This document shows positions 3,964-60,879 of a stretch of 64,000 nucleotides of DNA, one piece after another (the first letter of the stretch is position 1; each line of letters opens with the position of its first letter). Source of the stretch: an uncultured Planctomycetia bacterium (GTDB lineage: Bacteria > Planctomycetota > MHYJ01 > WSZJ01); the NCBI GenBank assembly GCA_964590435.1, contig CAZPWT010000008.1:83880-147879 (forward strand). The letters are read 5' to 3'. The position numbers and the translations under genes are program-made. Under the pieces are notes generated by a model. It was given only the letters and a program-made list of their open reading frames with translations. It was not told where the DNA came from and did no database searches.

Positions 3964-4872
3964 ATGCGCCGTTTCGCCATCGCCGCGCTCGTCGCGGCGC
4001 TTGCCCTTCCCGTTCTCGCCGACCCGGTCGAGATCAAGATGGGGCAGAAGCAGGGGGACAAGATCACGCGGACGACGGAGTTCGGCGGTGAGGGAACGCT
4101 GACGATCGGGAAGGGCGAGGGGGCGCAGGAGCTCCCGTGCGGGATGAACGACGCCGAGGTCGTGGCGGAGGAGGTGCTGGAAGCGAAGGACGGGAAGCCG
4201 GTGAAGATCAAGAAGTACTACACGGTGAACCGGAACGCCTTCACGATCGAGGCGGCGGGAGTGAACCAGGTGAAGAGGAACTCGCTGGTCGGGCACATCG
4301 TGACGGTGGAGATGAAGGATGGGAAGCCGGTCGCGACGTGCGAGGCGGGGACGGAGAAGGAGCTGAAGAAGGAGAAGATGGGGGAGGAAATCGACGAGGC
4401 GCTGATCCCGGGCAAGCCGGTGAACGTCGGCGACACGTGGGAAGGCGACCCGGCGCAGGTGAAGAAGGCGTTCGCGCCGGACGACGGCGAGGTCGAGGAA
4501 GCCTCAGTGACGTGCAAGCTGGAGGCGGTCGAGGAGAAGTTCGGGCAGAAGTGCGCGAAGGTGACGGTGAAGATCTCGATGAAGGCGACGGGGAAGGACG
4601 ACGCGGGACAGAAGACCAAGACGAAGATCACGCTGGAGGGCCCGGTGTGGTTCGGGCTGACGGCGGGGCGGTCGCTAGGGATGGAGCTGGAGGGCAAGCT
4701 GCAGGTGAACGGCAGCCTGCCGAATGGCCAGCCGATGAAGATGGACATCGACCTGAAGGCGAAGGGGGAATCGAAGCCGGGCGTGGCGGACTTCGAGGCG
4801 AAGGCGGAGGAGGGCGACGAAGAGGAAGGCGAAGGGGACGAGGGCGAGGAAGAAGAAGGCGGCATGAAGTAG
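3964..4872 (+). CDS. Secreted hypothetical protein with acidic Glu/Asp-rich C-terminus (paralog A)
   Basis: Signal peptide MRRFAIAALVAALALPVLA; clear sequence similarity to the next ORF. Confidence 0.6.
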   Translation: MRRFAIAALVAALALPVLADPVEIKMGQKQGDKITRTTEFGGEGTLTIGKGEGAQELPCGMNDAEVVAEEVLEAKDGKPVKIKKYYTVNRNAFTIEAAGVNQVKRNSLVGHIVTVEMKDGKPVATCEAGTEKELKKEKMGEEIDEALIPGKPVNVGDTWEGDPAQVKKAFAPDDGEVEEASVTCKLEAVEEKFGQKCAKVTVKISMKATGKDDAGQKTKTKITLEGPVWFGLTAGRSLGMELEGKLQVNGSLPNGQPMKMDIDLKAKGESKPGVADFEAKAEEGDEEEGEGDEGEEEEGGMK

Positions 4873-4951
4873 CGGATGCGGTTGATCCCAAGCGCGGGGG
4901 CGGCGACGCCTCCGCGCTTTTTTCGTTTCCGGGCCGCGCGGCGACTACACT

Positions 4952-5851
4952 TTGCGGATGCGCGCTTCCCTCCCCGCGGCCCTGATCCTGCTGGCGGCCT
5001 CGTTCTGCGCCGCCGAGGACGCCGCGACGATCGAGATCAGGCCGGGCGTGCAGGCTGGTGCGAAGATCACGCGGACGATGCGGACCTCGGGGAAAGGGAC
5101 GATCACCGTCGAGGCCGGCGGCGACCCGAAGGAGTTCGAGTGCCGGATGGACGGGGTCGAGGAGGTCGCGGAGGAGGCGCTCGAGGCGAAGGACGGGCGC
5201 GCTTCCAAGGTGAAACGCCGCTACGACCGCAAGGAGTCGACGTTCGAGGTGCCGGCGGTCGGGAAGAAGGAAGAGAAGGCGAGCAGCCTGCCGGGGCTGG
5301 TGCTGACGCTCGAGCGCAAGGACGGGAAGACGTCGGCGACGTGCGCGGAGAAGAACGTCGAGCCGAAGGAGCTGGCGTCCGAGACGCTGGACGACGAATG
5401 GAGCGTGCCGCTGTCGCCGAAAGGGCCGGTGGCGAAGGGCGACGAGTGGAAGCCGGACGCCGCGGCCGTGAAGGCCTGGGCCTCGGCGCGCGGCCGGAAA
5501 GTCGAGGAGGCGGCGCTGTCGTGCCGGCTGGCGGAAATCGAAACGCGCGGCGGCCGGAAGTGCGCGCGGATCGAGGTCGATTTCGCCGCGAAAGGGACGA
5601 CGAAACCCGGGGAGAAGCAGCCGGAGCAGAAGCTCGCGTGGACGCTCAAGGGCGACGTCTGGTGGAGCCTCGACGACGCGCGGGTCGTGGCGTTCGAGCT
5701 GAAGGGCGACCTGACGCTCGAGTGGGACGTGCCGGCGGCCGCGGGGAAAGCGGCGGAGCACTGGAAGAGCGCGATGAAGATTGAGCTGGGGGGCGAGGGC
5801 AAGCCGGGAGAGGCGAAGTTCGGGGCGGAGCCGGCGGGGAACGGGAAATAG
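4952..5851 (+). CDS. Secreted hypothetical protein (paralog B of 3964..4872)
   Basis: Signal peptide; shared blocks with paralog A (KITRT, EAKDG, conserved Cys positions). Confidence 0.6.
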   Translation: MRMRASLPAALILLAASFCAAEDAATIEIRPGVQAGAKITRTMRTSGKGTITVEAGGDPKEFECRMDGVEEVAEEALEAKDGRASKVKRRYDRKESTFEVPAVGKKEEKASSLPGLVLTLERKDGKTSATCAEKNVEPKELASETLDDEWSVPLSPKGPVAKGDEWKPDAAAVKAWASARGRKVEEAALSCRLAEIETRGGRKCARIEVDFAAKGTTKPGEKQPEQKLAWTLKGDVWWSLDDARVVAFELKGDLTLEWDVPAAAGKAAEHWKSAMKIELGGEGKPGEAKFGAEPAGNGK

Positions 5852-9779: not shown

Positions 9780-9786
9780 GTCGCTC

Positions 9787-10209: not shown

Positions 10210-10365
10210 CGGCGTCCTGCCCTCCTTGCGAGTGGTCCTGGCTCCGCCATCGCGGCGGCTTGGGCGGCGGCGGCCGGTTCGCGAATCGCCGAGCTGACAT
10301 AGCATTTCGAACGCTGTCCCTGCCTCGATATACTCTCCCGATCGATTCTATCTCTGGAGTTCACG

Positions 10366-14999: not shown

Positions 15000-15032
15000 C
15001 GGGCGTCCCGAACCGCGATTTCGGCAGGACCG

Positions 15033-15749: not shown

Positions 15750-15841
15750 GCTGGGCTCCATGTACCGGTGATGGCCTCGAACCTATCGAAATCCGCGGGT
15801 GGTGTCTTGCTTTCGGGAGAAGCGTTCGGTTTCCTGACCGG

Positions 15842-16584: not shown

Positions 16585-16743
16585 AGTCCCGCGGTGAAGT
16601 CTCCAACGCCATTGGATTTCATCGCGTTCTGGCAGCGCGGCCAGATCGTGGAAGGCGAGTTCCTGCTCCAGGTTTTCGCTGCCTTGAGACCCAGGAACGC
16701 GGTTTCCTTTCTCCGATCAGCGCCTGCTGAAGGCCTGGCGCTG

Positions 16744-18705
16744 ATGCGCACGGCCCTGTTGCTCTTGCTTGCGGTTTCAAACGGGCTTGCCCAGGCCCCC
16801 GCCCCGCTCAAGCTGAACGTCCCGAAGGACCACCCGCGCATCGGGATCTCGTCGGCCGACCTGGACAAGGTCCGCGCGAACATCGCGAACGAGCCGTGGG
16901 CGACGCTGTGGAAGACGGTCGTGGCGAAGTCGCAGGGGACGTGCCGAGGGGCGCTCGACCCGAAGGCGTGCTTCGGCGGCGCGAGCGGGCAGGGCGCGCG
17001 GTTCACGGTCACCGAGGCGCTGGAGTGCGTGGCGCTTCACGCGCTTGTCGGGAAGGACGCGGCGGCGGCGAAGGCGCTCTCGGACTTCTTCGAAGCGTGG
17101 GACCCGTCGTCGCTCGAGAAGGACATCGGCGACACGGACTTCATGTCGAGCGGGGAGTTCTTCGAAGGGCTCGCGGTGGTGCTCGACTGGACGTGGGACC
17201 TGCTCTCGGTAAAGGGCCGCGCCGGGCTCCGCGCGATCGTCGAGCGGCGCGCGAAGCACAACTACGACGGGTTCCTCGGCAAGAAGTCCTGGGAGGCCAC
17301 GACCGACGCGAACAATCACTCGATGGCGTCGATGGGGGCGCTCGGGCTCGCGGCGGTCGCGCTGTGGCACGAGAACCCGGACGCGCCGAAATGGGCCGGG
17401 CTCGTGAAGGCGAAGATGGACTCCTACCTCGCGTCCTCCTTCGACCCCGACGGCGCCTGCTACGAAGGCACGATGTACGGCCCCTTCGGCCTCTTCCGCA
17501 TCCTCCCCTTCTCCGATTGCTGCGCCCGATTCGGCGCCGGCGACGCGATGCAGGCCCTTCTCCCGAAGGTCATCACGCAGCTCGCAAACGAGCTGACCCC
17601 CGGCCGCGACCGCATGCTCCCGATCAACGACACCGACGGGAACTTCCTGCCGTGGGGCGGGACGCTCTTCCTGTATGACGCAGTGCGTCATGAATCCCCG
17701 CTCTCGCGCTGGATGTGGACGGACCTGTCGAGGCGCCAGGCCGGCAACGGCGGGCACACGTGGGCGTTCGCGGTGCTGTGGGAGGACGGCAAGGAGGGGG
17801 GCAAGCCGCCGGAGAAGAAGGTCGCGGTGACGAAGGGGCGCGGCACGCTCACCGTCCGCACCGGCTGGGAGAAAGCCGATTTCCTCGCGGCGTTCGAGTG
17901 CGGGAAGCGGATCCCGGGGTGTCACGGGCAGTCGGACGTCGGGCATTTCCTGCTTTACGCGAAGGGCCGCTGCCTCGCCGCGGACACGGGGTACTCGAAC
18001 GAGGCGGAGGAGGGGAAGCCGCAGCAGTCGATCGGGCACAACCTCGTGCTCGTGGACGGCAAGGGAGAGGTGCTGACGGGCGGCGGTCAGGTCACCGAGG
18101 GAAAGCTCGTCCAGTGGGAGGCGCGGAAGACCCTCGTCTGGGCGCAGGCCGACCTCACCGGCGCCTTCGCGCAGAAGGCGTACAACCCGATGGCCGTCGC
18201 GACGCGCTGCTTCATCGTCCTCACCGGCCCCGACCCGTACGTCGTCGTCGCAGACGCGTTCGTGAAGGACGCGAAGGACCACGAGTACACGTGGCTGATG
18301 CACGGCAACGCCGACTCGAAGTTCGACCTCGCAAAGGACCGGGCGACGCATCTCGCCGGCGACGCCGCCCTCGACGTGGTCCCGTGCCTGCTCGACAAGG
18401 AGACGCCCGCCTTCGAAACGAAGAAGTTCCCCAGCGGCAATTTCGGCGAGCACGACATGCTCCGAGTGACCGTGAAGGCCAAGCGATGGCTCGGGCTCAC
18501 CGTGCTCGCTCCGAGGTCTTCCGCGGATCCTGCCGCCGAAGTGAAGCGGGAAATCAAGAGCGGCAAACTCGTCGTCACGGTGACGCGGGGCGGGGCGAAG
18601 GACGAGGTCACGCTGACCGCGAACCCTAATGGCGGGATCGCTTCTATCCGGGTGGTCCGGACCCTCGACGGCAAGCCGATCGCGGAGGATCTGAAGCTGA
18701 AGTAG
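16744..18705 (+). CDS. Heparinase II/III-like family protein (putative polysaccharide lyase)
   Basis: Signal peptide at internal Met (MRTALLLLLAVSNGLAQA); HGQSDVGHFLLYAKG resembles the heparinase II/III His-rich motif; ORF opens at 16594. Confidence 0.55.
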   Translation: MRTALLLLLAVSNGLAQAPAPLKLNVPKDHPRIGISSADLDKVRANIANEPWATLWKTVVAKSQGTCRGALDPKACFGGASGQGARFTVTEALECVALHALVGKDAAAAKALSDFFEAWDPSSLEKDIGDTDFMSSGEFFEGLAVVLDWTWDLLSVKGRAGLRAIVERRAKHNYDGFLGKKSWEATTDANNHSMASMGALGLAAVALWHENPDAPKWAGLVKAKMDSYLASSFDPDGACYEGTMYGPFGLFRILPFSDCCARFGAGDAMQALLPKVITQLANELTPGRDRMLPINDTDGNFLPWGGTLFLYDAVRHESPLSRWMWTDLSRRQAGNGGHTWAFAVLWEDGKEGGKPPEKKVAVTKGRGTLTVRTGWEKADFLAAFECGKRIPGCHGQSDVGHFLLYAKGRCLAADTGYSNEAEEGKPQQSIGHNLVLVDGKGEVLTGGGQVTEGKLVQWEARKTLVWAQADLTGAFAQKAYNPMAVATRCFIVLTGPDPYVVVADAFVKDAKDHEYTWLMHGNADSKFDLAKDRATHLAGDAALDVVPCLLDKETPAFETKKFPSGNFGEHDMLRVTVKAKRWLGLTVLAPRSSADPAAEVKREIKSGKLVVTVTRGGAKDEVTLTANPNGGIASIRVVRTLDGKPIAEDLKLK

Positions 18706-19063: not shown

Positions 19064-20038
19064 CTACTTCTTCTCCCGCAGCCCCTCGAGTTCTGCCTCG
19101 ACGCTCCGGATGATCTCCGTGTTCTTCATGCCCGAGGCCATCGCGGCCTCGAGGTGTCGCTGGGCGTCGTCCAGTCGACCTTCGCAGACTGCTTTCGACC
19201 CGGCCAGGAAGCGCCCCTCCGACTTGCGCAGGCTGTCGATGTTCTCGATCGACCCCTTCGCTTCCGCGAGCAGGGCCTCCTCCGTCACGTCCCCGAGGAG
19301 AAACAGCCCATAGGACTCCACCCGATCTCCCCGGGGTTTCCTCCCTTTCAACCACTCCCGCAGCTCCCCGTCCGCCGCCTCCTTCTTCCCAAGCCGCGCC
19401 TTGAGGATCCAGATCCGCAGCCGCGTGTAGTCCTGCCCCTCGCTCTCCAGCGAAACGCTCTTCTCCAGGTCCGCCAGCGCGTCTTCCCATTCGCGAAGGT
19501 TGTAGAGGCAGAGGCCGCGGTTGAGGTAGGCGCGGGCGTAATTCGGGTTGAGCTGAAGGGCCATCGTGGCGTCCTTGAGGGCGCCGTCGGCATCGCCGTT
19601 GAGGCGCTTCGCGAACGACCGGTTGTTCCACGCGAGCGCCAGGTCGGGGTCGAGGCGCAGCGCGGCGTCGTAGGAAGCGATGGCGCCGGCGAGGTCGCCG
19701 GAGTCGGCCTTGGCGAGGCCGAGGTCGTTGTGGAGGCCGGCGTTTTCGGGGGCGAGGGTGAGAGCCTTGTCGAAGTCCTCGAGAGCGCCCTTGAGATCCC
19801 CAAGGCGTCGGCGTATCAACGCGCGGTTGTGCCACGCTGTGTCATCCAGGGGATCGGATTCGATCAGCCGGGTGCAAGCCTGCTCGGCCCGCTTGAGTCC
19901 GTCCGTGGAACACCTTTCCCAACTGCGGAGGGTGTGCGGCTCAGGGAGCGGATCGTCCGCGAACGCAGGAATCACCAGGGCCAGGACCACGAGGGCACGA
20001 AGCATGTCCCCATCATCCCCCGTGCCGTCCCTTTTCAT
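19064..20038 (-). CDS. Secreted TPR-repeat protein
   Basis: Several TPR units (AWHNRALIRRRLGDLKGALEDFDKAL, YNLREWEDALADLEKS); ATG 20038 preceded by an AG-rich tract; alternative start 20005 (MLRALVVLALVIPAFA). Confidence 0.7.
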   Translation of the reverse strand: MKRDGTGDDGDMLRALVVLALVIPAFADDPLPEPHTLRSWERCSTDGLKRAEQACTRLIESDPLDDTAWHNRALIRRRLGDLKGALEDFDKALTLAPENAGLHNDLGLAKADSGDLAGAIASYDAALRLDPDLALAWNNRSFAKRLNGDADGALKDATMALQLNPNYARAYLNRGLCLYNLREWEDALADLEKSVSLESEGQDYTRLRIWILKARLGKKEAADGELREWLKGRKPRGDRVESYGLFLLGDVTEEALLAEAKGSIENIDSLRKSEGRFLAGSKAVCEGRLDDAQRHLEAAMASGMKNTEIIRSVEAELEGLREKK

Positions 20039-20070
20039 TTTTCCTTTTTCCTTTTTCGTTTTTCCTTTCC
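20033..20070. repeat. Pyrimidine-rich TTTTTCC-type tandem tract (AG-rich on the minus strand)
   Basis: tttcatttttcctttttcctttttcgtttttcctttcc, in the divergent region between the TPR and PDZ genes; read on the minus strand it gives repeated GGAAAAA units upstream of the TPR start. Confidence 0.6.
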
Positions 20071-23422: not shown

Positions 23423-23424
23423 CG

Positions 23425-23485
23425 CCCTTTCCCTTTCCCTTTCCCTTGCCCTCCCTCGCAACCCGCAACCCGCAACTCGCAACTC
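23425..23485. repeat. Microsatellite-like tandem repeats (CCCTTT)n and (CNCGCAA)4
   Basis: ccctttccctttcccttgccctccctcgcaacccgcaacccgcaactcgcaactccccc in the intergenic region between the two esterase genes. Confidence 0.6.
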
Positions 23486-23515
23486 CCCCCCGCACGCGCC
23501 AGCTACCATACCCTC

Positions 23516-25130: not shown

Positions 25131-26735
25131 ATGCGACTGCGCCTCGCCCTCCTGCTCTTCCTCGCCTCCACGACCGCCGCCGAGGAGCCGTTGCGCGACC
25201 GCTGGATCTACGTCTCGCGCAACCTCTGGGTCGACAAGAACGTCGACGAGGTGGAAGCGCTGTTCCGGCGCGCGGCGGCGGCGGGCTACAACGGCGTGCT
25301 GCTGTCGGACTCGAAGTTCTCGCGGCTGGAGGACATGGACAAGCGGTACTTCGCGAACGTCGACCGCCTGAAGAAGGTGGCGGCGGAGCTGAAGCTGGAG
25401 ATCGTGCCGGCGGTGTTCCCGATCGGGTACTCCGAGGGACTGCTGTCGCGAGACCCCGATCTCGCCGAGGGGCTGCCGGTGCGGGACGCGCTGTTCGTGG
25501 TAAAGAACGGCGAGGCGCGGGTGGAAGCGGACCCGGCCCTGGCGCTGAAGGGCGGCGACATGGCCGACCTGAAGGCCTGGGACTGGAAGGACGAGACGGT
25601 CGTGGCGGAAGACGGCGAGGCGAGAGTGACGGACCCGAAGGGAAAGAACGCGCGGATCGTGCAGAAGGTCAAGGTCGCGCCGTGGCGCCAGTACCACATC
25701 TCGGTGCGCGTGAAGACCGAGAACTTCCGCGGCGAGCCGCGCGTCGCCGTGCTCGCGGGCGAGCGGTCGCTCAACCACGCAAACCTCGGCGCCAAGCCGA
25801 CGCAGGACTGGACGACGCACCACGTCGTCTTCAACTCGCTCGACGCGACCGAAGTCGGCGTCTACCTCGGCGCCTGGGGCGCGGATACCGGCTCGCTCTG
25901 GTGGGACGACGCGACGATCGAGGAAGCGGGCCCGGTGAATCTCGTCCGCCGCGAAGGCGCCCCGCTCATCGTCACCGCCGACGGCGGCCTCCCCCTCGCC
26001 GAGGGCAAGGACTTCGAGCCGCTCACCGACCCGAAGATGGGCACGGTCCCCTGGCGCGGCGGCTTCGAGGTCTGGCACGAGCCCCCCGCCCTCAAGACCA
26101 GCCTCAAGGAAGGCACCCGCCTCCGCGTCTCGTACTTCCACGCCCTCACCGTCCACGACGGCCAGGTCATGGTCTGCCCTTCAGAGCCCAAAACCCTCGA
26201 TCTCCTCCGCGACCAGATGAAGCGCGTCCACGCCGCGTTCGGAGCGAAGGCCTACTTCATGTCCCACGACGAGATCCGCGTCATGGGCTGGGACGACTCC
26301 TGCGCCAAGCGCGGCCTCGACGCCGGCGCGATCCTCGCGGACAACGTGAAGGCCTGCACGAAGATCGTCCGCGACGTCGCCCCCGGCGCCCGCATTTTCG
26401 TCTGGAGCGACATGTTCGACCCGCACCACAACGCCCACGCGAACTACTACCTCGTGAAGGGCGACCTCAAGGGCTCCTGGGAGGGCCTCGACAAGGACGT
26501 GATCGTCGCCTGCTGGTATTTCGACAAGCGCGCCGAGAGTCTCAAGTTCTTCGCCGACCGCGGGCACAAGACGCTCATCGCCGGCTACTACGACGCGAAC
26601 CCGAAGCAGATCCTGAAATGGCTGGAGGCGGGCAAGGCCGCCGGCGGAGTCGAAGGCGCGATGTACACGACGTGGGAGAACAAGTACGAGGACATGGAGG
26701 AGTTCGGGGCGCTGCTCGGTAAGTCGGGTCGGTAG
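25131..26735 (+). CDS. Secreted hypothetical protein, possibly glycoside-hydrolase-like
   Basis: Signal peptide MRLRLALLLFLASTTAA; 534 aa; function inferred only from context next to hydrolases. Confidence 0.55.
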   Translation: MRLRLALLLFLASTTAAEEPLRDRWIYVSRNLWVDKNVDEVEALFRRAAAAGYNGVLLSDSKFSRLEDMDKRYFANVDRLKKVAAELKLEIVPAVFPIGYSEGLLSRDPDLAEGLPVRDALFVVKNGEARVEADPALALKGGDMADLKAWDWKDETVVAEDGEARVTDPKGKNARIVQKVKVAPWRQYHISVRVKTENFRGEPRVAVLAGERSLNHANLGAKPTQDWTTHHVVFNSLDATEVGVYLGAWGADTGSLWWDDATIEEAGPVNLVRREGAPLIVTADGGLPLAEGKDFEPLTDPKMGTVPWRGGFEVWHEPPALKTSLKEGTRLRVSYFHALTVHDGQVMVCPSEPKTLDLLRDQMKRVHAAFGAKAYFMSHDEIRVMGWDDSCAKRGLDAGAILADNVKACTKIVRDVAPGARIFVWSDMFDPHHNAHANYYLVKGDLKGSWEGLDKDVIVACWYFDKRAESLKFFADRGHKTLIAGYYDANPKQILKWLEAGKAAGGVEGAMYTTWENKYEDMEEFGALLGKSGR

Positions 26736-26776
26736 CTGGTGGTCAGTGGTTGGTGGTCAGTGGTAACGACGACGAA

Positions 26777-26805
26777 AACGGCCACGAGGAGCCCTCGTGG
26801 CCGTT
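26777..26805. terminator. Hairpin, probable bidirectional intrinsic terminator
   Basis: Perfect 13-bp stem AACGGCCACGAGG / CCTCGTGGCCGTT with 3-nt loop, T-rich flank on both strands, at a convergent gene junction. Confidence 0.5.
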
Positions 26806-26862
26806 CTTGTCTCGCGTTTGGATCGGGCCTTGCCCGTCCACCAACCACCGACCACCGACTCC

Positions 26863-27162
26863 CTACCCCTTTTCCGGCCCTCTCGACCCGAGCTCGCGAT
26901 CGATCTCGAGCAGCGCCACGGGATCGTTCTTGATGAGATTGAACTTCGCGACAATGTCCCTCGCCGACTTCTCTTCCTCCACCTGCTCCGTCAGGAACCA
27001 CTGCAGCTCGACCATCAGCGAGAGCGCCTTTTCCTTCTGCGCCAGCTCGTACAGCGCGTCGATCCGCTTCGAAACGCTCAGTTCCTGCGCCAGCGCCGCT
27101 TCGAAGACTTCCTGCATCCCCTTGAACTTCACCTTCGGCTCCGGGATCGCGTTCAGCTTCAC
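26863..27162 (-). pseudogene. Truncated 3-prime copy of the ferritin gene (about 100 C-terminal codons, diverged)
   Basis: About 95% identical at DNA level to 28123..28435 (ferritin C-terminus) with a few amino-acid substitutions; lacks the N-terminal half of ferritin. Confidence 0.6.
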
Positions 27163-28064: not shown

Positions 28065-28116
28065 CCGTGCGTGTTGTCTTGGCCTTTCCTGGCCGCCGGC
28101 CGCTGGCAACTCGCCA

Positions 28117-30197: not shown

Positions 30198-30598
30198 GGC
30201 CGGGCGGCTACTTCCGCCCTTCCTTCCGCTTTGCGAACTCCCCCGAGCGCGCGACTGCCTCGTCGAGCGCCTCTGCCCGGAGGACGTTTCCGCCGCGCCG
30301 TTCGCAGAGGGGCGCGGCATGTGCGGTGCGCATAGAAGTTCCTCAAGGAGTCCTGGGCCGGCGACGATAGCACGGGCACAAACGCCTCCACAAAGTCGAG
30401 CTGCATGTCTCGTTCCACGGGGTCCTTCGCGGAAGCGCGAGAGGCGGACCGGGGGGTCGAGCGGTCGGGGCGAGCGCAGCGACGCCGCCCGCCGTTCGGC
30501 GGCGTCGCGCAGCGAGGTCCGACCGCCGACCCCCCGGTTCGCCTCTCGCGCTTCCGGTGGATTGACATGCGCGCCCCCGGTCCCTCAGACTCCGCCGC

Positions 30599-33100
30599 AT
30601 GGCAACGCCGCTCATGGAGCAGTACCTCGCGATCAAGCGACAGCATCCCGACGACCTGCTGTTCTTCCGCCTCGGCGACTTCTACGAAATGTTCTACGAG
30701 GACGCGAAGACGGCGGCGCGGGCGCTGGGGATCACGCTGACGTCGCGGTTCAAGGGCGAGCAGGCGGTGCCGATGGCGGGCGTGCCCGTCGTCTCGTACG
30801 AGAACTACGTCGCGAAGCTGCTGCGCGCCGGGTTCCGGGTGGCGGTGTGCGAGCAGACGCAGGACGCGGAGGAGGCGGAAGGGCTGGTCGAGCGCGGCGT
30901 CGTGCGCGTCATGACCCCCGGGACGCTGACGGAGCAGAACCTGCTCCACGCAAAGTCCGCGAACTTCCTCGCGGCGGCGTGCCCCACGAAGGGCGGCGTG
31001 TTCTCGCTGGCGTGGGCGGATCTTTCGACGGGGCAGTTTTACGCCGAAGGGCTTCCGGAGCGGGAGCTGCTCGACGAACTGACGCGGCTGGCCCCGACGG
31101 AACTGCTCGTGCCCGAGAATCTGCGCGAGGCAGAGTGGCTCGCACCCGTGAAAGACGCGCTCAAGGTCTGCGTGACCCCGGCGCCGGAGTGGGACTTCGA
31201 ACCCGCGCGGAGCGACGAGATCCTCGGGAAGCACTTCGGCACCGCCGGCACCGGCGGCTTCGGGCTCGAGGGGATCCCGCTTCCCGCCGCGGCCGCGATC
31301 GTCGAGTACCTGCGGCGGACGCAGCGGACGGAGCTGCGGCACCTCGCGCGGCTGCTGCCGTTCTCGCGGGACGGCCGCGTGTTCCTCGACCGGGCGACGC
31401 AGCTCGGGCTCGAGCTGACGCGGACGATGCGCGGTGGCGACGACGGCGAGACGCTGCTCGGCGTCCTCGACCGCACCTCGACCGCGATGGGCGCGCGGCT
31501 CCTGCGCGACTGGCTCCTCTGCCCGCTCCGCGACGTCCCCGCCATCCGCCGCCGCCACGACGCCGTCCAGGAACTCGCCGAGCAGCACCTCTTCCGACAG
31601 GAACTCCAGGCCGCCATGCGCCGCATGGGCGACCTCGAGCGCCTCGCCGCCCGCCTCGGCTCCGGCCGCGCCAACGCCCGCGACCTCGCCGGCGTCGCTG
31701 TCACGCTGCTCCAGGTCCCTGAGCTGAAGGAAGCGCTCGCCACGGCGAAGACCGCGCTCGTCGGCGACGTCGCCGCTTCCCTCGACCCGCAGGAAGACCT
31801 CGCCGCGACGCTGACCCGCGCCCTCACGGAAGATCCGCCGATGACGCTCAAGGAGGGCGGGCTCATCCGCGACGGCTTCGACGAGGAACTCGACCGACTC
31901 CGCTCGCTCCAGCGTGACGGCCAGTCGTGGATCGCGCGGTTCCAGGCGGACGAGCAGAAGCGCACCGGGATCCCGGTGAAGGTCGGGTTCAACCAGGTGT
32001 TCGGGTATTACATCGAGATCACGCACGCGCAGGCCGGGAAGGGCGAAGTGCCGCCGGAGTACATCCGCAAGCAGACGACGAAGAACGCGGAGCGGTACAT
32101 CACGCCGGCGCTGAAGGAACACGAGACGGAGGTCCTGAACGCGGACACGGCGGGGAAGAAGCGGGAGTACGAAGTGCTGCTCGAGCTGCGCGAGCGGGCG
32201 GCGAAGGGCGTGGCGACGCTGCTGCGGACGGCCGCGGCGATCGCGGAGCTCGACGTGGTCGCTTCGATGGCGCAGGTGGCGGTCGAGCACCGCTACGCGC
32301 GCCCCGTCGTCGACGAGTCCGGCGCGCTGGAGATCAAGGACGGGCGCCACCCGGTGCTGGAGAGGTTCACGCAGGACCGCTTCGTCCCGAACGACGCTGC
32401 TCTCGACACCGACGGCGCGCGCATCGGCCTGATCACGGGGCCGAACATGGCGGGGAAATCGACGTACATCCGGCAGGTGGCGCTGATCGCGCTGATGGCG
32501 CAGGCCGGGAGTTTCGTGCCGGCCGCCGCGGCCCGGATCGGCGTCGTGGACCGCATCTTCACCCGCGTCGGCGCCGGCGACGAGCTCACGCGCGGGAACT
32601 CGACGTTCATGGTCGAGATGAACGAAACCGCCGCGATCCTGCACAACGCCACGGCGCGGTCGCTCGTCATCCTCGACGAGATCGGCCGCGGCACTTCCAC
32701 TTTCGACGGCCTCTCCATCGCCTGGGCCGTCACCGAGTACCTCCACGACCGCGTCGGCGCCCGCACGCTCTTCGCCACCCACTACCACGAGCTCACTGCG
32801 CTCGCCCGCGCGCTCCCCGGCCTCCGCAACCTCCACCTCCACGTCCGCGAGCACCAGGGGCGCATCGTCTTCACGCACCGCATCGGCCAGGGCGCGACCG
32901 ACAAGTCCTACGGCGTCCACGTCGCGCAGCTCGCCGGGCTGCCCAAGCCCGTCGTCGAACGGGCGGGGCAGATCCTGAAGCGCCTCGAGGACCAGGAGCT
33001 GGAGGTCGCGGACCGGCCGAAGTTCGCGCGGCAGGCGAGCGCGGCGAAGGCGCTGCAGCGGTCGCTGTTCGGGGAGGACAGCGCGCGGGAGAAGCCATAG
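30599..33100 (+). CDS. mutS: DNA mismatch repair protein MutS
   Basis: N-terminus MATPLMEQYLAIKRQHPDDLLFFRLGDFYEMFYEDA; Walker A GPNMAGKSTYIRQ; 833 aa. Confidence 0.9.
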   Translation: MATPLMEQYLAIKRQHPDDLLFFRLGDFYEMFYEDAKTAARALGITLTSRFKGEQAVPMAGVPVVSYENYVAKLLRAGFRVAVCEQTQDAEEAEGLVERGVVRVMTPGTLTEQNLLHAKSANFLAAACPTKGGVFSLAWADLSTGQFYAEGLPERELLDELTRLAPTELLVPENLREAEWLAPVKDALKVCVTPAPEWDFEPARSDEILGKHFGTAGTGGFGLEGIPLPAAAAIVEYLRRTQRTELRHLARLLPFSRDGRVFLDRATQLGLELTRTMRGGDDGETLLGVLDRTSTAMGARLLRDWLLCPLRDVPAIRRRHDAVQELAEQHLFRQELQAAMRRMGDLERLAARLGSGRANARDLAGVAVTLLQVPELKEALATAKTALVGDVAASLDPQEDLAATLTRALTEDPPMTLKEGGLIRDGFDEELDRLRSLQRDGQSWIARFQADEQKRTGIPVKVGFNQVFGYYIEITHAQAGKGEVPPEYIRKQTTKNAERYITPALKEHETEVLNADTAGKKREYEVLLELRERAAKGVATLLRTAAAIAELDVVASMAQVAVEHRYARPVVDESGALEIKDGRHPVLERFTQDRFVPNDAALDTDGARIGLITGPNMAGKSTYIRQVALIALMAQAGSFVPAAAARIGVVDRIFTRVGAGDELTRGNSTFMVEMNETAAILHNATARSLVILDEIGRGTSTFDGLSIAWAVTEYLHDRVGARTLFATHYHELTALARALPGLRNLHLHVREHQGRIVFTHRIGQGATDKSYGVHVAQLAGLPKPVVERAGQILKRLEDQELEVADRPKFARQASAAKALQRSLFGEDSAREKP

Positions 33101-33183
33101 TCGTTGCCTGCCGGCCGTTTGCACTTCTCGCCTCGCCCCCGCCTCAAGCTATACTCCCCGCCTCATCCTCCGGAGAACGCCCC

Positions 33184-41805: not shown

Positions 41806-41868
41806 CCCCATTCCCTTTTCAAAGCACCGTCCGGGACTACAATCGCCACCCCACGAGAGGAGACCCCC

Positions 41869-42993: not shown

Positions 42994-43001
42994 GTGACGA
43001 C

Positions 43002-43026
43002 GTCGAAGGTCGAAGGTTGAAGGTCC
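43002..43026. repeat. GTCGAAG heptamer tandem array
   Basis: gtcgaaggtcgaaggttgaaggtcc, 9 nt after the leuB stop; same element in reverse complement at 52797..52828. Confidence 0.6.
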
Positions 43027-43168
43027 GGGGAAACCGGCAATGATGGACGACCGATTCCCCACCGACACCCCTACCCGATCCCGACACAACCTGCCTGCCC
43101 CCAACCTTCGACTTTCGACGTCCTTTCCTTCCGCAATCTCCTCCCCCACCCACCCCCCGGAGACCCCA

Positions 43169-44270
43169 ATGGCCGAAACACTGCGACGCGCCCAGGAACT
43201 GAAAGCCCGCCTCGATGCCCTCCGGGACTCTCTTTGACCTCCCTAAAAAGAGGCTCGAGCTCGACCGCATAGAGACGGAAATGGGCGCCGCGGACTTCTG
43301 GAACAACCAGGAGGCGGCGAAGAAGAAGGTCCTGCAGCTCAAGGCGCTCAAGGGACTCGTCGACCCCGTCGAAGCGCTCACCAAGGCGTTCACGGACGCC
43401 GCGGAGCTCGCCGAACTCGCCGAGGGCGAGAACGACGCCGCCACCGTCAAGCAGGTCGCCGCCGACCTCGTGAAACTCGAGGCCGAGCTCGCCGCCATCG
43501 AGCTCCGCACGCTCTTCAAGGACGACAACGACTCCCGCGACTGCTTCATGGCCATCCAGGCAGGCACGGGCGGCACCGACGCGTGCGACTGGGCCCAGAT
43601 CATCCTCCGCATGTACAAGGCCTACTGCGAGCGCATGGGGTTCGAGGCCAAGCTGATCGACGTGCAGGAGGCCGACGAGGCCGGCATCCGCTCCGCCACG
43701 CTCGAGGTCCGCGGCCCGTACGCCTACGGTTACCTCAAGGGCGAGCACGGCGTCCACCGGCTCGTCCGCATCTCCCCCTTCGACGCCAACCACCGCCGCC
43801 AGACCGCGTTCGCTTCCGTCGACGTCACGCCGGAGTTCGAGGAGGAGGACATCGAGATCAAGGAAGCGGATCTCAAGATCGACACGTACCGGTCAGGGGG
43901 CGCTGGGGGCCAGCACGTGAACGTGACCGACTCGGCCGTCCGGCTCACACACATCCCGACGGGGATCATCGTCGCGTGCCAGAACGAGCGCTCGCAGCCG
44001 CTCAACAAGAAGATGGCTCTGAAGTACCTCGCCGCGAAGCTCCTCGCGGCGCGCGAGGCCGAGCGCTCCGCCAAGATCGACGCCGCCCGCGGCGCCAAGG
44101 GGCGCATCGGCTTCGGCAGCTCCAGCCAGATCCGCAGCTACACCATGAACCCGTTCCAGCTCGTCAAGGACGCCCGCACCGATATGGAGTCCGGAAACAT
44201 CCAGGCGGTGCTGGACGGCCGGCTGGAGGAGTTCGTCGAGGCCTATCTCAAGTGGAATGCGAGGCAATAG
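43169..44270 (+). CDS. prfB: Peptide chain release factor 2, requires +1 programmed frameshift at 43232..43238
   Basis: ORF0 MAETLRRAQELKARLDALRDSL ends at CTT TGA C; the +1 frame continues DLPKKRLELDRIE through the SGGAGGQHVNVTDSAVRLTHIPTG (GGQ) motif. Confidence 0.85.
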
Positions 44271-44282
44271 CCCGCCCGCGAG

Positions 44283-44476
44283 GGGAAAGGGCAACTTCAA
44301 GACGACGAACTACAAGTAAATGGCGAACTTCAAGACTGCAACTTCAAGGGTTGCCGCGAAGCTGGTCCTCCCGATCCTGCGCGGAGACCGATCGCCGGCA
44401 CGAACGCATTCGCCGGCAGGCTTGAAATTGTCGTCTTGAAGTTGCCGTTTACTTGAGAATTGAAACGTTGTCGTTG
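44283..44476. repeat. Array of direct and inverted AACTTCAAG / CTTGAAGTT repeats
   Basis: Left arm has four spaced copies of (C/G)AACT(T/A)CAAG, right arm has three inverted copies; lower GC than flanks; only small spurious ORFs overlap. Confidence 0.5.
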
Positions 44477-44622
44477 CTGTTTCTCCGGGCCGTCCACGGC
44501 CACCCACGCTCGCACGATCGCCCCGGCGATGCCGGCCCAGCACCCTTCGACGCCTTTGCCCTTGATTACCCCCCCCTCACCACCGCACAATCCCCCCGGG
44601 GGCGGACATCAGGAGTCGTCGC

Positions 44623-45735
44623 ATGCGCACGCCGATCCTGTCACTTGCCGGCGCTTCTCTGCTCTTCTTCGCCGGCTGCAAGACACCCGTACCGACGCAT
44701 TTCGACCTCGGCATCGCCGCCGAAAAACGCGGCGACAAGGCCACGGCGCTCGCCGAATTCGAGACCTCGGTGAGCCTCGAGCCCGTCCACAAGCACGCGT
44801 GGCGGCACATCGGGTACCTCAAGTCCGAGAAGCAGGGCGGCAAGGACTACACCAAGGAAGTCCGCGACGCCATCCTCCTGTTCCTCATGCTCGAGACCTA
44901 TGAGGTCGGCAACGTCGCCGGCGACCCGGAACTCGGCATCCCCGAGTCCCCCGTCGAGCCCCACCTCGCCCGCCGCATGGTCCGCGCCTGCAACGCCGTC
45001 ATCCGCAAGATCGACGAGATCGAGGAAGAAGCGGACGTCTGCTACCGCGAGTTCATCCTCGACACGTCCGACGCCGACCTCAAGCAGATGGCCCTCGACG
45101 CGCAGGGCGCCGCCCTCGAGGCGAACATGGGCGTCTCCCCGAAGGCCCACTGGATGATGGGCGAAATCCTCCGCCGCTCCGGCGACGCCGCCGGCGCCAA
45201 GGGGCACTACGAAATCGCGCTTCAGCAGTCCAAGGACCTCAAGCGCACGAACCTCAAGGCGCAGGTCGGCCTCGCGCTCGTGGGCGGCAACCTCGACGAG
45301 GGATGGCTCGCGGTCAGCCAGCTCAAGAACCGCGACCTCTACGTCGAGTTCATCGAGGCGTGCCTGGAGCGCAACGAGCTCGACCGGGCCGTGATGGCGG
45401 CCACGGCGGCGCGCAAGAACCACGCCGACGCGCGCGTCTGGAGGCTGCTCGCCGAGGCCCACCTGCTCAAGGACGACACCGCGAACGCCGCCAGCGTGAT
45501 CTCGACGCTGGAGAAGTGGCCCGGCAAGGACAAGGACGCCGCGAACTTCCTGCGGCTCTGCTGGGCGGCGCTGACGGGCGGGAAGACGGCGGAGGTCGCG
45601 AAGAAGCTCGACGACGCCAGCGCGACGGGGAGCTTCGATCCCTCGCGGCTCGCGGCCCACGTCGAAGGCTCAAAGGCGGACGGCGCGGCAAAGGCGGCGG
45701 TCAAGAAGGCCGCGGACAAGATGACGGCGAAGTAA
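44623..45735 (+). CDS. Helical-repeat (TPR-like) lipoprotein, hypothetical
   Basis: AGGAG before ATG; lipobox LLFFAGC; helical repeat composition. Confidence 0.65.
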   Translation: MRTPILSLAGASLLFFAGCKTPVPTHFDLGIAAEKRGDKATALAEFETSVSLEPVHKHAWRHIGYLKSEKQGGKDYTKEVRDAILLFLMLETYEVGNVAGDPELGIPESPVEPHLARRMVRACNAVIRKIDEIEEEADVCYREFILDTSDADLKQMALDAQGAALEANMGVSPKAHWMMGEILRRSGDAAGAKGHYEIALQQSKDLKRTNLKAQVGLALVGGNLDEGWLAVSQLKNRDLYVEFIEACLERNELDRAVMAATAARKNHADARVWRLLAEAHLLKDDTANAASVISTLEKWPGKDKDAANFLRLCWAALTGGKTAEVAKKLDDASATGSFDPSRLAAHVEGSKADGAAKAAVKKAADKMTAK

Positions 45736-51563: not shown

Positions 51564-52843
51564 GACGTGAACACCTCCACGACCTTGCGGAGGGCGGCCT
51601 CGAGGGCGAGGGCTTCCTCCGGAGTGTTGTAGAACGCGACGGAAGCGCGGGCGGTGGCGGGGAGGCCGAGGCGGGTCATGACGGGCTGGGCACAGTGGTG
51701 GCCGGTGCGGATGGCGACGCCCTCGCGGTCGGCGATGGTGCCGATATCGTGGGGGTGGATGCCCTCGAGGACGAAGGAAGCGACGCCGGCCTTGTCCTTC
51801 GCGGTGCCGACGAGTTTCGCGCCGGGGACGCGGAGGATGGCGGCCTCGAAGGCGGCGAGGAGTTCCTTTTCGCGGGCGGCGATGCGGTCCATGCCGATCG
51901 CCGACAGGTAGTCGATCGCGGCGCCGAGTCCGACGACGCCCTCGATGTTCGGGGTGCCGGCTTCGAACTTCGCGGGGACCTCGGCCCAGGTGGACTTCTC
52001 GAAGCTGACGCTGGAGATCATGTCGCCGCCGCCCTGCCACGGGGGAAGCGAGTTCCAGAGGGCGAGCGGGGCCCAGGCGACGCCGATGCCGGTGGGGGCG
52101 CACATCTTGTGGCCGCTGAAGATATAGAAGTCGGCGCCGATGTCTTTCACGTTCACGGGCTGGTGCGGGACGGCCTGCGCGCCGTCGACGAGGACCGTCG
52201 CGCCGGCGGCCTTCGCCATCCGGGCGATCTCGCGGATCGGGGTGACGGTGCCGAGGGCGTTCGAGACGTGCGTGACGGCGACGAGCTTCGTCTTCGGCGA
52301 CAGGAGCTTCGCGTACTCCGCCATGTCCAGCTCGCCCGCGTCGTTCATGGGGATGACGCGGATCTTCGCGCCCTTCTCTTCGCACAGCAGCTGCCACGGG
52401 ACGATGTTCGAGTGGTGCTCGAGCGTCGAGAGCACGATCTCGTCGCCCTTCCCGATCCGCGTCCGCCCGAACGTCTGGGCGACGAGGTTGATCCCCTCGG
52501 TGGCGCCGCGGACGAAGACGCACTCGCGGGGATCGGCGGCATTGATGAAGCGGGCGACTTTCTTCCGGACGCCCTCGTACGCGATCGTCGCCTGCTCGGA
52601 GAGCCAGTGCACGCCGCGGTGGATGTTGGCGTTGTGCGATTCGTAGTACTCGCGCACCGCGTCGATGACGACCTGCGGCTTCTGGCTCGTCGCGGCGTTG
52701 TCGAGGTAGACGAGCGGCTTGTTGCGCACGGACTGCTTCAACGCCGGAAAGTCGGATCGCACGGCAGCCCAGTCGACCGGGCGGTCGGGGCCAGGCCCTT
52801 CAACCTTCGACCTTCGACCTTCGACGCCGTTCTCCGTCCTCAA
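51560..52843 (-). CDS. sufS: Cysteine desulfurase SufS (copy 2)
   Basis: RSDFPALKQSVRNKPLVYLDNAATSQKP, SGHKMCAPTG, RTGHHCAQP; TTG start placed to overlap the sufD stop (TTGA), a GTG about 75 nt downstream is an alternative; ORF 51560..53389 has an Arg-rich upstream extension. Confidence 0.75.
   Translation of the reverse strand: MRTENGVEGRRSKVEGPGPDRPVDWAAVRSDFPALKQSVRNKPLVYLDNAATSQKPQVVIDAVREYYESHNANIHRGVHWLSEQATIAYEGVRKKVARFINAADPRECVFVRGATEGINLVAQTFGRTRIGKGDEIVLSTLEHHSNIVPWQLLCEEKGAKIRVIPMNDAGELDMAEYAKLLSPKTKLVAVTHVSNALGTVTPIREIARMAKAAGATVLVDGAQAVPHQPVNVKDIGADFYIFSGHKMCAPTGIGVAWAPLALWNSLPPWQGGGDMISSVSFEKSTWAEVPAKFEAGTPNIEGVVGLGAAIDYLSAIGMDRIAAREKELLAAFEAAILRVPGAKLVGTAKDKAGVASFVLEGIHPHDIGTIADREGVAIRTGHHCAQPVMTRLGLPATARASVAFYNTPEEALALEAALRKVVEVFTS
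52797..52828. repeat. GTCGAAG heptamer tandem array (reverse-complement copy)
   Basis: Minus strand reads ggcgtcgaaggtcgaaggtcgaaggttgaagg, shortly after the sufD stop; same unit as 43002..43026 with one extra copy. Confidence 0.6.
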
Positions 52844-54186
52844 GCGTTCCTCCCCGCCTCCAGCAACCTCTGCACGATCGACCGGTCGAGCCACTCCCGC
52901 GTCTCCGGGATCGCGAACTGCACCAGCACGTCCCGCGCGAAAGCATACGTCAGGATCCCCCGCGCCAGCTCCGGCGCGATGCCGCGCGACCGGCAGTAGA
53001 ACACCATCTCCTCGTCCAGCTGCCCCACCGTCGCCCCGTGTGTGCACTTCACGTCGTCCGCGAAGATCTCCAGCTGCGGCTTCGTGTCGACGCGGGCGTC
53101 GTCGGAGAGGAGCAGGTTCTTGTTCGTCTGCTTCGCGTCCGTCTTCTGCGCGTCCTCCCTCACGAACACCTTCCCGTTGAACACCACGTGCGACCGCCCG
53201 TTCAGGATCGCCTTGTAGAACTCGCGGGAAGGGCAGTTCGGGACGGCGTGGTCGATGACGGTGTGGTGGTCGATGTGCTGGTGGCCGGACGCGATCGAAA
53301 GGCCAAGGAACTGCGCCTCTGCGCGCTGGCCGGCGAGGAAGGCGCCGAGGTCGTGGCGGAAGAACTCCGCGCCGGTGACGGCGCTGCACTCCTGGAAGAA
53401 TGCGCCTTCGCCGAGCCGGGCCTGCGTGTTGGCGACGTGGTACGCGTTGCCGCTCTCCGCCTCGAGCCGGATCGACACGAGGCGCGCTCCGGCGGCCAGG
53501 TCCACCTCGGTCACGGCGTTGGTGAAGTAGAGGTCGCAGGAGGGCGAAGCGTAGGCTTCGACGACCTGGACCTGCGCGCCGGCGCCGAGCACGAACAGGT
53601 GCCGCGGGTGGCTGGCGAGGTAGGACTCGTGCGACAGGTGCAGGACAAGGACCGGCTTCTCGACGACTTTCCCTTCAGGCACGTACACGAACGCCCCGTC
53701 CTGGAACAGCGCGGTGTTGAGCGCCGTGAACGCCGTCGCGCCCGGCTTCGCGAGCTTCCCGAGCCGCGGCTCGATGATCGCGCGGTGCTTCTCGAGCGCC
53801 TCCGCGAGGCTGCACACCACGACGCCCGCCGGGAGCCCGTCGAGCTTCGAGAGCTCCTTCGAGAAGAACCCGTCCACGACCACGATCCGCGGCGAATTCT
53901 CCAGCCCGAACGTGAACAGCTTCGCCGTGTTCGCGACCAGCGCGTCCTTCTTCGGCTCCAGCGACTGCCGGAACCCCGTCTTCACCAGCGTCTCGACGCT
54001 CGTGTACCGCCACTCCTCGTCCGCGGTCGTCGGGAACCCGCGCTCCCGGAACGCCGCCGCGCCGAGCTTCCGCAACTCCGCGAGCCACGGGAAGCGCTTC
54101 CAGCCCGCGCTCCGCTCCCCCGCCTCGAGGTGGGCGGGCCAGCAGCCGCCGAGGACGGCGGGCTTCTCGAGGGCGGCCGTGCTCAT
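52840..54186 (-). CDS. sufD: Fe-S cluster assembly protein SufD
   Basis: 448 aa SufD-like sequence; ATG overlaps sufC stop (ATGA). Confidence 0.85.
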
Positions 54187-54947: not shown

Positions 54948-55011
54948 CTCAGTCCTTCCCTTTCCGTTTTTCTGTTGTCCTTCACTGGCCGCTGGCAACT
55001 GGCCGCTCGCC

Positions 55012-59890: not shown

Positions 59891-60879
59891 GAGTTGCCAG
59901 CGGCCGGCGGCCAGCGGCCAGGGGCCTGGTCCTGATGGCGGTCCTGTCGATGTCGCTCCCCGCGGCGGCGGAGGAGCTCGACCTCGAGGGGTGGTGGAAG
60001 GACGCCTGCTTGTGGGAGGTCGGGTCGAACCTGGAGAAGGTGCCGGCCGCGCGGAAGAAGCTCATTGAAGCGGGTGCGCCTACGATCGAATTCCTCATCC
60101 CGGGGAAACTTGACGCGGCGGACACGATCATCACCCGCGCGCTCAGCATGGTCATCACCGGCATCGCGGGGACGGCTACGCAGAAGCCGCAGAGCCTGGA
60201 GATCCGCGAGAAGACCATCAAGGGGCTGATCGCCGCCATCGACTCGAACCTGCCCAACGTCCGCCGCAACGCCGCCGACCTCCTCGGCCAGCTCGGCGCC
60301 ACCGAGGCCGCTTCGAAAATCGCCGGCCTCCTCGCCGACAAGGACGCCCGCGGCGGCGCGCTCGCCGCCCTCGGCGCGCTCAAGGCCCAGTCCGCCGTGC
60401 CGGCCATCGCCGCCATGGCGCGCGACGCCTCCGTCTCCGAACGCGGGCGCTTCACCGCCGTCTCCACACTCGGCGCCATCGGCGGTCCCGACGCCCAGGC
60501 CGCCCTCCTCGAGTTCCTCGGCGACAAGCTCGCGACCGTGCGCTTCGCCGCCCAGTACGCGCTCGAAGCGATGCGTTCCACCGGGGCGTTCGTCAGCAGG
60601 CTCCGCGACGCCGACCGCCGCGTCCGCATCCACGCTCTCTCCGCCCTCGGCCACCTCGCCGAGCGCTCCACCCGCGCCGACATCCGCCCGCTCCTCGACG
60701 ATCCCGACGCGACCGTGCGCGGCTTCGCGGTGGAAGCGCTGGCGGCGATGCCGAAGCCGTCGGACCGGGCGTGGGTGGACGCGATGCTCGTGACGGAGAA
60801 GGACGAGTTCGTGCGCGGCAAGCTGCTCGAGGCGCGCGGGATCCTGCTCGACCCGCCTCGGCCGGACGGGACGAGGTAG
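59887..60879 (+). CDS. Secreted HEAT-repeat protein, translationally coupled to the upstream repeat protein
   Basis: ATG overlaps upstream stop (ATGA); signal peptide; repeated xxVRxxAAxALGxLG-type HEAT units. Confidence 0.7.
   Translation: MRVASGRRPAARGLVLMAVLSMSLPAAAEELDLEGWWKDACLWEVGSNLEKVPAARKKLIEAGAPTIEFLIPGKLDAADTIITRALSMVITGIAGTATQKPQSLEIREKTIKGLIAAIDSNLPNVRRNAADLLGQLGATEAASKIAGLLADKDARGGALAALGALKAQSAVPAIAAMARDASVSERGRFTAVSTLGAIGGPDAQAALLEFLGDKLATVRFAAQYALEAMRSTGAFVSRLRDADRRVRIHALSALGHLAERSTRADIRPLLDDPDATVRGFAVEALAAMPKPSDRAWVDAMLVTEKDEFVRGKLLEARGILLDPPRPDGTR

Follow-up and report, generated by a model that had tools for sequence, protein, structure and literature searches.

A palindromic extragenic repeat family with multi-unit arms, found 3′ of prfB and at other intergenic sites in an uncultured Planctomycetota clade

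The palindrome 3′ of prfB

The 64-kb stretch of DNA analysed here, hereafter the window, comes from an uncultured Planctomycetia bacterium; element coordinates are window positions. Its prfB gene encodes release factor 2 (43169..44270, + strand), with PCRF and RF-1 domains, an ATG at 43169, a programmed +1 frameshift site CTTTGAC at 43232-43238 and the stop codon at 44268-44270. An imperfect palindrome of 205 nt, 44282..44486, starts 11 nt past that stop and lies entirely in intergenic DNA. This palindrome is a copy of a dispersed palindromic extragenic repeat family, here called the A family, of a small uncultured Planctomycetota clade. The next gene encodes a TPR-repeat lipoprotein (44623..45735, + strand) with a signal peptide and a lipobox-like FAGC. 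A promoter-like site, the putative promoter of that gene, CTTGAT-N19-CACAAT (or TTGATT-N18-CACAAT), lies at 44561..44591 on the + strand. The 60 nt upstream of the TPR gene, consisting of the promoter-like site and then GGGGGCGGACATCAGGAG, are kept in six related genomes whatever precedes them, and the palindrome is therefore placed outside the 5′ untranslated region (UTR) or leader of the TPR gene.

The arms of the palindrome are built from 9-mers of the type AACTTCAAG. A motif search allowing ≤1 mismatch on both strands finds AACTTCAAG exact on the + strand at 44293, 44326 and 44340 and on the − strand at 44435, with one-mismatch units at 44308 (+, AACTACAAG) and 44421 (−, AATTTCAAG). The left arm, 44282..44349, to which no strand is assigned, begins with the outer end GGGGAAAG and carries units at 44293-44301 (AACTTCAAG), 44308-44316 (AACTACAAG), 44326-44334 (AACTTCAAG) and 44340-44348 (AACTTCAAG), spaced 15/18/14. 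The right arm, 44420..44486, is an inverted copy of the left arm with units at 44421-44429 (CTTGAAATT) and 44435-44443 (CTTGAAGTT), two additional degenerate units of 3 mismatches each at about 44452-44460 (CTTGAGAAT) and 44473-44481 (GTTGCTGTT), and the outer end CTGTTTCTCC. The self-symmetry of the 9-mer is limited to CTT-N-AAG, and the units are directional. Between the arms is a GC-rich centre of about 70 nt (44350..44419) with two small local stem-loops. If the leading C/G is included, the left-arm units become 10-mers starting at 44292, 44307, 44325 and 44339; the first-pass annotation of this DNA had picked out the same four sites, at positions 1-2 nt off.

The repeat cluster reported in that annotation is real. 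Six 9-mers with ≤1 mismatch are packed in 151 nt of the element, far above the level of dinucleotide-shuffled sequence, in which 4.67 such matches are expected per whole window on both strands. The remaining 63.8 kb hold 21 matches, mostly in-frame codons resembling AAC-TTC-AAG. At this observed background about 0.05 copies would be expected in 151 nt, giving a Poisson probability of about 2e-11 by our own arithmetic.

The region 44282..44486 folds as one hairpin with 79 pairs. The RNA fold energy is −97.6 kcal/mol for the + strand (z −9.0) and −85.5 for the − strand (z −5.3), and the DNA fold reaches −51.1 kcal/mol (z −6.7). No shuffled sequence attains this stability, and the longest inverted repeat (within 300 nt) of the window sits in the element. 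The folding check proposed earlier thus bears out the inverted arms, and extends the pairing beyond the roughly 50 bp first supposed to the larger palindrome of 205 nt. In a global DNA alignment the two arms of this copy show 47 Watson-Crick pairs, 10 wobble-type mismatches and 10 transversion mismatches. The element was correctly described as a segment of lower GC, its 52-53% comparing with 64-72% in the flanking genes.

The view that no plausible protein is encoded here holds as well. The sole open reading frame (ORF) is a 39-codon ATG frame at 44320-44439; it has no Shine-Dalgarno-like GGAG just upstream, and no other member of the family has its ATG. Orthologous left arms differ by a 1-nt indel, which speaks against a coding role.

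Related copies and their gain and loss

Relatives were collected as five Planctomycetota metagenome genomes through the downstream protein, and more through prfB homologues and contig look-ups; copies were detected over the retrieved loci, which carry L numbers, by BLAST and by a hidden Markov model of the arm (the arm profile). Four loci in three genomes carry the arms, three of these loci being in two related Planctomycetota metagenome genomes. In the window the profile matches the left arm at 44283-44341 (E 4e-16) and the right arm at 44485-44428 on the − strand (E 1e-13). The further copies are at L001:2106-2288 (L001a), L001:3214-3398 (L001b) and L137:242-476, with E from 1e-11 to 4e-16. 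L136, another assembly of the L001 organism, shows both L001 loci, and L137 represents a third organism.

All copies share one architecture. Each has inverted arms of about 65 nt with four 9-mers per arm, spaced 14-16/17-19/14 in every arm; the family arm consensus (alignment A2) is GGAAACAGCAACTTCAAGACGnCGAACTTCAAGCAAACGGCGAACTTCAAGACGGCAACTTCAAG with its mirror image, and the element ends at all four loci are GGAAAC...GTTTCC. The centres are 54-105 nt and unrelated in sequence and length, that of the window copy showing no similarity to the others. The elements measure about 185-235 bp.

The copies lie at unrelated intergenic sites. The window copy is 3′ of prfB, L001b is between the stop of a patatin gene and the start of prfB, and L001a and the L137 copy lie where the patatin gene and an acyl-CoA ligase/beta-oxidation operon diverge. 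One copy occurs in the 64-kb window; about 30 kb of the L001/L136 genome contain two. The first-pass annotation had left room for a low-complexity spacer should relatives hold neither copies nor conserved sequence. The intergenic DNA of this lineage is indeed rich in short tandem repeats, but the improbable motif cluster and the failure of any shuffle to fold as well argue against a spacer arisen by chance, and the homologous copies in other genomes refute it; the probability left to it is virtually nil.

In L136, a block of about 9 kb (8414-17872), holding the patatin gene and the fatty-acid beta-oxidation operon, parts Iso_dh from prfB, two genes that are adjacent in the window and in most relatives, and two A-family copies flank the patatin gene. 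We rejected a composite transposon formed by these two copies, as L139 has patatin beside the ligase gene without an A copy. Two independent short-read (Logan) contigs of the same species carry a 100% identical element copy (L007:1665-1865 and L008:1662-1862), and both stop inside the right arm. This is consistent with an inverted repeat breaking de Bruijn graph assembly, a practical cost of such elements in short-read data.

Wider searches added no further copies. The plasmid collection gave no match to the element in a distant blastn search. Viral contigs gave at least 120 loci with the paired 9-mer pattern, all low-GC chance matches, and the architecture was present in none among the matches listed. 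A metagenome scan with the alignment of the downstream protein returned one short locus only, which was not informative. The family is not described in the literature searched (Planctomycetes palindromic repeats and MITEs; bacterial inverted repeats with tandem-repeat arms).

The closest relative, L009, shares 95% amino-acid identity in prfB and 96.5% in Iso_dh with the window. About 250 nt of the window, 44273..44525 (approximate boundaries), form a lineage-specific block that cannot be aligned with L009 (alignment A4), while the flanking DNA is about 90% identical, both at the end of prfB and across the promoter and 5′ UTR of the TPR gene. The L009 segment 3′ of prfB has no significant structure (z −0.4). 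We do not claim it as a decayed orthologous copy; its profile match is marginal (E 3.8) and the pairwise alignment is essentially random.

The patatin/ligase site behaves likewise. It is filled in L001 and L137, whose neighbouring protein is 87-88% identical, and empty in the more distant L139, where a 110-nt spacer has no arm-profile match. The difference between the window and L009, together with the empty L139 site, shows that copies are gained and lost. An arm-profile search found no arms in about 100 kb of seven other related genomes.

Constraint on the arms and the nature of the element

Constraint was examined in one orthologous pair, L137 and L001a. The left arms are identical at 55/67 columns (82%, 1 gap column) and the right arms at 59/70 (84%, 0 gap columns). 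The centre shows 57% identity with 58 gap columns, the flanking intergenic DNA 41% and 57% with 2 and 14 gap columns, and the 4-fold degenerate sites of the adjacent ligase gene 62%. Judged from this alignment, the arms are under sequence constraint or are homogenised by gene conversion, and they appear to be kept intact by selection.

What is constrained is not the pairing. Among the 21 differing arm columns of this pair there are 19 one-sided changes and 0 compensatory ones, and the four-way arm alignment contains no compensatory change. Complementarity of the arms within a copy, 71-80%, is not above the arm identity between copies, about 78-84%. Transversions make up most arm mismatches, with 8-10 per copy compared with 3-10 of wobble type, and the latter are split between the strands. 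The constraint thus falls on arm sequence, not on pairing. RNAalifold on the four sequences gives a poor consensus of −20 kcal/mol with a covariation term of +0.31, in part because the repeated units permit register shifts. The more stable strand is + in the window copy, − in L001a and neither in L001b; a consistent strand bias in G-U versus A-C mismatches was sought among the copies and not found.

These data bear on an RNA role. No terminator-like site separates the prfB stop from the element in a consensus scan, and the element is therefore probably transcribed as part of the prfB 3′ UTR. One explanation is a host cis-acting RNA structure, that is a terminator, a 3′-end protector or an RNase III site insulating prfB, with the 9-mers incidental. 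The start 11 nt past the prfB stop, the lack of any other terminator-like site before the next promoter, the z of −9.0, the 12 kcal/mol by which the sense fold is stabler than the antisense, and the 7 G-U pairs against 3 would all suit it. The element also resembles an intrinsic terminator in lying directly 3′ of a stop codon and forming a stable sense stem-loop. However, its stem of about 79 pairs is AU-rich and contains internal loops, the sequence after the stem is CCGGGCC without a T-run, and a terminator scan of 44270-44560 found nothing, the intrinsic-terminator pattern of a GC-rich stem of 5-20 bp, a 3-8-nt loop and a following U-tract being absent. Canonical GC-stem and T-run terminators occur at several other gene ends in the window, so the organism does not depend on long palindromes for termination.

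Hairpins of unrelated sequence directly after prfB in other relatives favour the same explanation. L012 has a near-perfect 100-nt hairpin there (z −10.6), and GGTAG-repeat hairpins follow prfB in L005 (z −2.4/−3.7) and L002 (arms 88% complementary). The same position is without significant structure in L003 and L013 (z 0.1 and 0.3) as in L009, and a general rule of a selected, conserved hairpin after prfB was rejected on this ground. One family locus, moreover, sits in a promoter region serving divergent genes, a place without transcript ends; the strand preference is reversed or gone in other copies; and arm changes are one-sided with none compensatory, the mismatches being mostly transversions. 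A primary RNA role of this kind is distinctly unlikely, though it is compatible, as a by-product, with the mobile-element model considered below.

An independent structured small RNA (sRNA) gene with its own promoter, one of the candidates of the first-pass annotation, fares worse. The fold is strong on both strands and the region is intergenic and non-coding, as such a gene would require. Against it, Rfam (15) has no match over the element at E≤10 (scan 43800-45000), which is also the outcome of the covariance-model search proposed earlier, and there are no matches at the Rfam gathering threshold in the window, L136 or L137. The tRNA/tmRNA scan found none, and a consensus scan found no promoter-like site within the element. 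The arms do not covary, mismatches are largely transversions, strand preference varies, centre and flanks are not conserved, and the closest relative has no counterpart. We consider an sRNA gene very unlikely.

The constraint on arm sequence, with four directional 9-mers at fixed spacing, suggests that the arms may be recognition arrays for a trans-acting protein. Information content peaks in the 9-mer core, with the caveat that the units were chosen by that pattern. The earlier suggestion of an iteron-like cluster survives in the sense of 9-mers as protein recognition sites. It does not survive in the sense of a plasmid origin, whose iterons are tandem direct repeats of 17-22 bp beside a rep gene, an AT-rich region and DnaA boxes: here the core measures 9 nt, the units of one arm run opposite to those of the other, no rep gene is present, and the neighbours are the housekeeping gene prfB and a TPR lipoprotein gene. 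An integron attC site was rejected also, because the ends do not match the R''/L''...L'/R' core sites (RYYYAAC / GTTRRRY), sequence is conserved here whereas attC sites conserve structure and not sequence, and the neighbours are housekeeping genes where a cassette context would be expected.

The recognition sites might form a fixed array for a host nucleoid-associated, looping or regulatory protein, with eight AACTTCAAG-type sites, the palindrome reflecting the symmetry of the protein and the element not being actively mobile. Constraint on sequence in place of pairing, the information concentrated in the 9-mer core of units selected by that pattern, the nearly indel-free unit spacing beside centres of 54-105 nt, and the retention of the orthologous copy where 4-fold sites are just 62% identical are what such an array would leave. 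But the neighbours of the copies are functionally unrelated, prfB and a TPR lipoprotein gene in one case and patatin and a beta-oxidation operon in the other; the nearest relative lacks the site and most related genomes sampled lack the arms; and no candidate binding protein is encoded beside any copy. We regard a fixed array as unlikely, though worth keeping in view.

The dispersal of the copies, which includes a promoter region, their turnover, the lack of compensatory evolution and the inconsistent strand preference together argue against a primary RNA role and for an element of the REPIN or miniature inverted-repeat transposable element (MITE) kind. REPINs are doublets of repetitive extragenic palindromic (REP) sequences that form hairpins and are mobilised by REP-associated tyrosine transposases, RAYTs (Bertels & Rainey 2011, PMC3116915). 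The A family is best regarded as a palindromic extragenic repeat family of this MITE/REPIN kind that had not been described before, and not as an sRNA or a replication iteron. The specific reading that it is a non-autonomous MITE/REPIN-like element whose arms are recognised by a trans-acting protein is one that we hold with evenly balanced confidence.

In this model, a protein encoded elsewhere, a transposase or recombinase or a domesticated descendant of one, would read the arm arrays and would either spread the element or keep its copies homogeneous. The element would have landed past the prfB stop and ahead of the next gene's promoter. Its long hairpin would then fall in the prfB 3′ UTR, where it may incidentally end or stabilise the transcript; as an RNA structure it is probably a by-product.

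A palindrome upstream of prfB offers a parallel case. It spans 42994-43135, between the Iso_dh stop and the prfB start, and has arms of GTCGAAG heptamers (z −4.6/−3.6). Compared with L009 and six other relatives it is cleanly inserted, and GACGTC(G/C) stands at each junction. L009 reads ...GGCGACGGCGTCG joined directly to TTTCCTTCCGCAAGC; the window reads ...GTGACGACGTCG, then the insertion (AAGG...CTTTCGACGTCC), then TTTCCTTCCGCAATC. Palindromes thus do insert in this genome.

Among known bacterial elements, the MITE-like candidate of the first-pass annotation fits best. The element is short and non-coding with terminal inverted repeats (205 nt, 65-nt arms, an ORF that is not conserved), copies are dispersed at non-homologous intergenic sites, with four loci in three genomes, and presence or absence at orthologous sites differs between close relatives both 3′ of prfB and at the patatin/ligase site. 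Bacterial MITEs differ in that for the A family neither a target-site duplication nor an autonomous parent was found in the window and the retrieved loci, the internal sequence is not shared, and the arms seem to be under purifying constraint at the orthologous locus.

With REPINs the family shares extragenic, non-coding, hairpin-forming sequence with conserved inverted ends and a less conserved spacer (PMC3116915), persistence at orthologous sites, and the lack of a target-site duplication. However, each REPIN end is a single REP palindrome of 16-25 nt, and a REP is a short (about 20-40 nt) imperfect palindrome, whereas each A end is about 65 nt with four non-palindromic, directional 9-mers. 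REPIN spacers are stable in length and their hairpins are maintained by compensatory changes; A centres vary from 54 to 105 nt and no change is compensatory. No RAYT gene was seen near the A copies in the retrieved loci.

Di Nocera et al. (2013, PMC3733652) reported REP families, and families of long inverted repeats tied to RAYT-like transposases (TIRYT/TIRtrons), from deep phyla that include Planctomycetes. TIRYT/TIRtron families are, like the A family, moderately abundant inverted repeats of deep-branching phyla, with HUH tyrosine transposases as their presumed mobilising partners in trans (PMC3733652). They differ in that no GTAG/CGTC tags can be assigned to the A arms and no TIRYT gene occurs in the sequence examined. 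Palindromic repeats of the REP/REPIN and MITE types are well studied in Proteobacteria and poorly in Planctomycetota; the A family is not in Rfam and pairs traits unusually, with long arms of four sub-repeats and a freely variable centre.

The ends of Mu, Tn7, Tn402/Tn5053 and IS21 contain several transposase-binding sites that are directional, direct within an end and inverted between ends. The A arms resemble them in their multi-site, directional, sub-terminal repeats of irregular but fixed spacing. The sites in those elements are about 19-22 bp, the ends are usually TG...CA and insertion makes 4-7-bp duplications, none of which is seen in the A family.

Foldback and Galileo elements also have long inverted arms of short tandem sub-repeats around a variable middle (PMC3573991). 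These are eukaryotic, far larger and, for Galileo, served by a known transposase of the P-element superfamily. The likeness is one of analogy only.

Several observations weigh against the mobile-element model. Target-site duplications were seen at none of the four A loci when their flanks were read, though old ones could have decayed. No transposase or RAYT-like gene with these arms was seen in the window or among the Pfam-annotated genes of the retrieved loci, and no Y1/HUH transposase is among the annotated neighbours; the sequence available covers an estimated 1-2% of each genome, and the Pfam scan a minority of the window genes. All copies are about 80% alike, and the lack of near-identical pairs gives no sign of recent transposition bursts. 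The centres differ wholly from copy to copy, as those of MITEs descended from a single master copy would not usually do. Finally, arms that are 82-84% identical where neutral DNA is at about 50-60% are not expected of a dead selfish element. Such conservation at an orthologous site points to a host-level function or to gene conversion, not to pure selfishness, and keeps alive both the binding array and the RNA structure at the prfB 3′ end.

On a different account, the A arms may be no decaying parasite but a multi-site recognition module that the host maintains at extragenic positions under purifying selection, its two inverted arrays with eight 9-mers in all being read by a dedicated and perhaps domesticated protein of transposase origin. 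They may also be one product of a lineage-specific process that seeds intergenic DNA with palindromes having short tandem repeats as arms; we rate this account as a low but real possibility. Under the seeding account, the A, GGTAG/GGTGGT, GTCGAAG and GCCAGYG types of the window could form a prokaryotic counterpart of foldback elements.

Arms constrained in sequence and not in pairing, as in the one orthologous pair, point to a protein partner, and the 9-mer array provides a handle to find it. For annotation, such elements are a risk in that they can be mistaken for sRNAs or terminators. They also flag places between genes where the sequence changes from one close relative to the next.

Other palindromes and repeats in the window and its relatives

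Another palindrome of short repeats is at 26722-26872. It consists of GGTGGTCAGTGGT repeats with GGTGGTC/GGTAGTT-type arms and encloses a canonical bidirectional terminator at 26777-26811. Palindromes of this type at L005:2517-2655 and L002:4573-4689 begin at the prfB stop codon. Their arms hold repeated GTAG, the tag of RAYT-cleaved REPs, a candidate resemblance only.

The heptamers of the 42994-43135 palindrome recur at 52797-52826 (− strand sense) as an GTCGAAGG array, a solo arm without an inverted partner, few bases past the stop of a − strand gene (52840..54186). A 25-mer, GAGTTGCCAGCGGCCGGCGGCCAGG, is found at 28088-28112 (−) and 59891-59915 (+) with 0 and 1 mismatch. Each copy is ≤4 nt past a stop codon in the sense orientation, and the 25-mer is absent from all retrieved loci. 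A third stop codon is followed, at 54948-55011 (−), by a run of related heptamers, GCCAGYG.

Arrays of 7-nt period with ≥3.4 copies are intergenic in 7/7 cases (20028-20068, 23425-23485, 26739-26764, 26834-26859, 43002-43025, 52797-52825 and 59896-59926). Within genes, most tandem arrays either have a period divisible by three or are short, with 2 copies. The intergenic DNA of this lineage seems to be characterised by heptamer microsatellites, which recall the STRR repeats of cyanobacteria.

Larger inverted repeats are also present. A near-perfect GC-rich hairpin of 144 nt at 30421-30564 (−132 kcal/mol, z −12) occupies the intergenic space between two divergent genes, one on the − strand starting at about 30407 and one on the + strand at 30599..33100. 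L009:9711-10477 has arms of 372 nt, 96% complementary and separated by 23 nt, which could be an assembly artefact or a foldback structure. The inverted repeat L001:5807-5980 has 61-nt arms that are 90% complementary. Its right arm is the conserved TPR promoter and 5′ UTR. Its left arm, an inverted copy of the right, faces a − strand gene (4649..5635), an addition present between prfB and the TPR gene in some relatives. The repeat has the look of a duplicated promoter working in both directions.

Composition shifts near gene ends as well. Pre-start regions at 3064-3144, 3892-3963, 23423-23515, 33101-33183, 41806-41868, 43040-43168 and 44487-44620 are strongly C-rich and nearly G-free on the sense strand, with GC skew down to −0.68, and several stretches right after stop codons are purine-rich.

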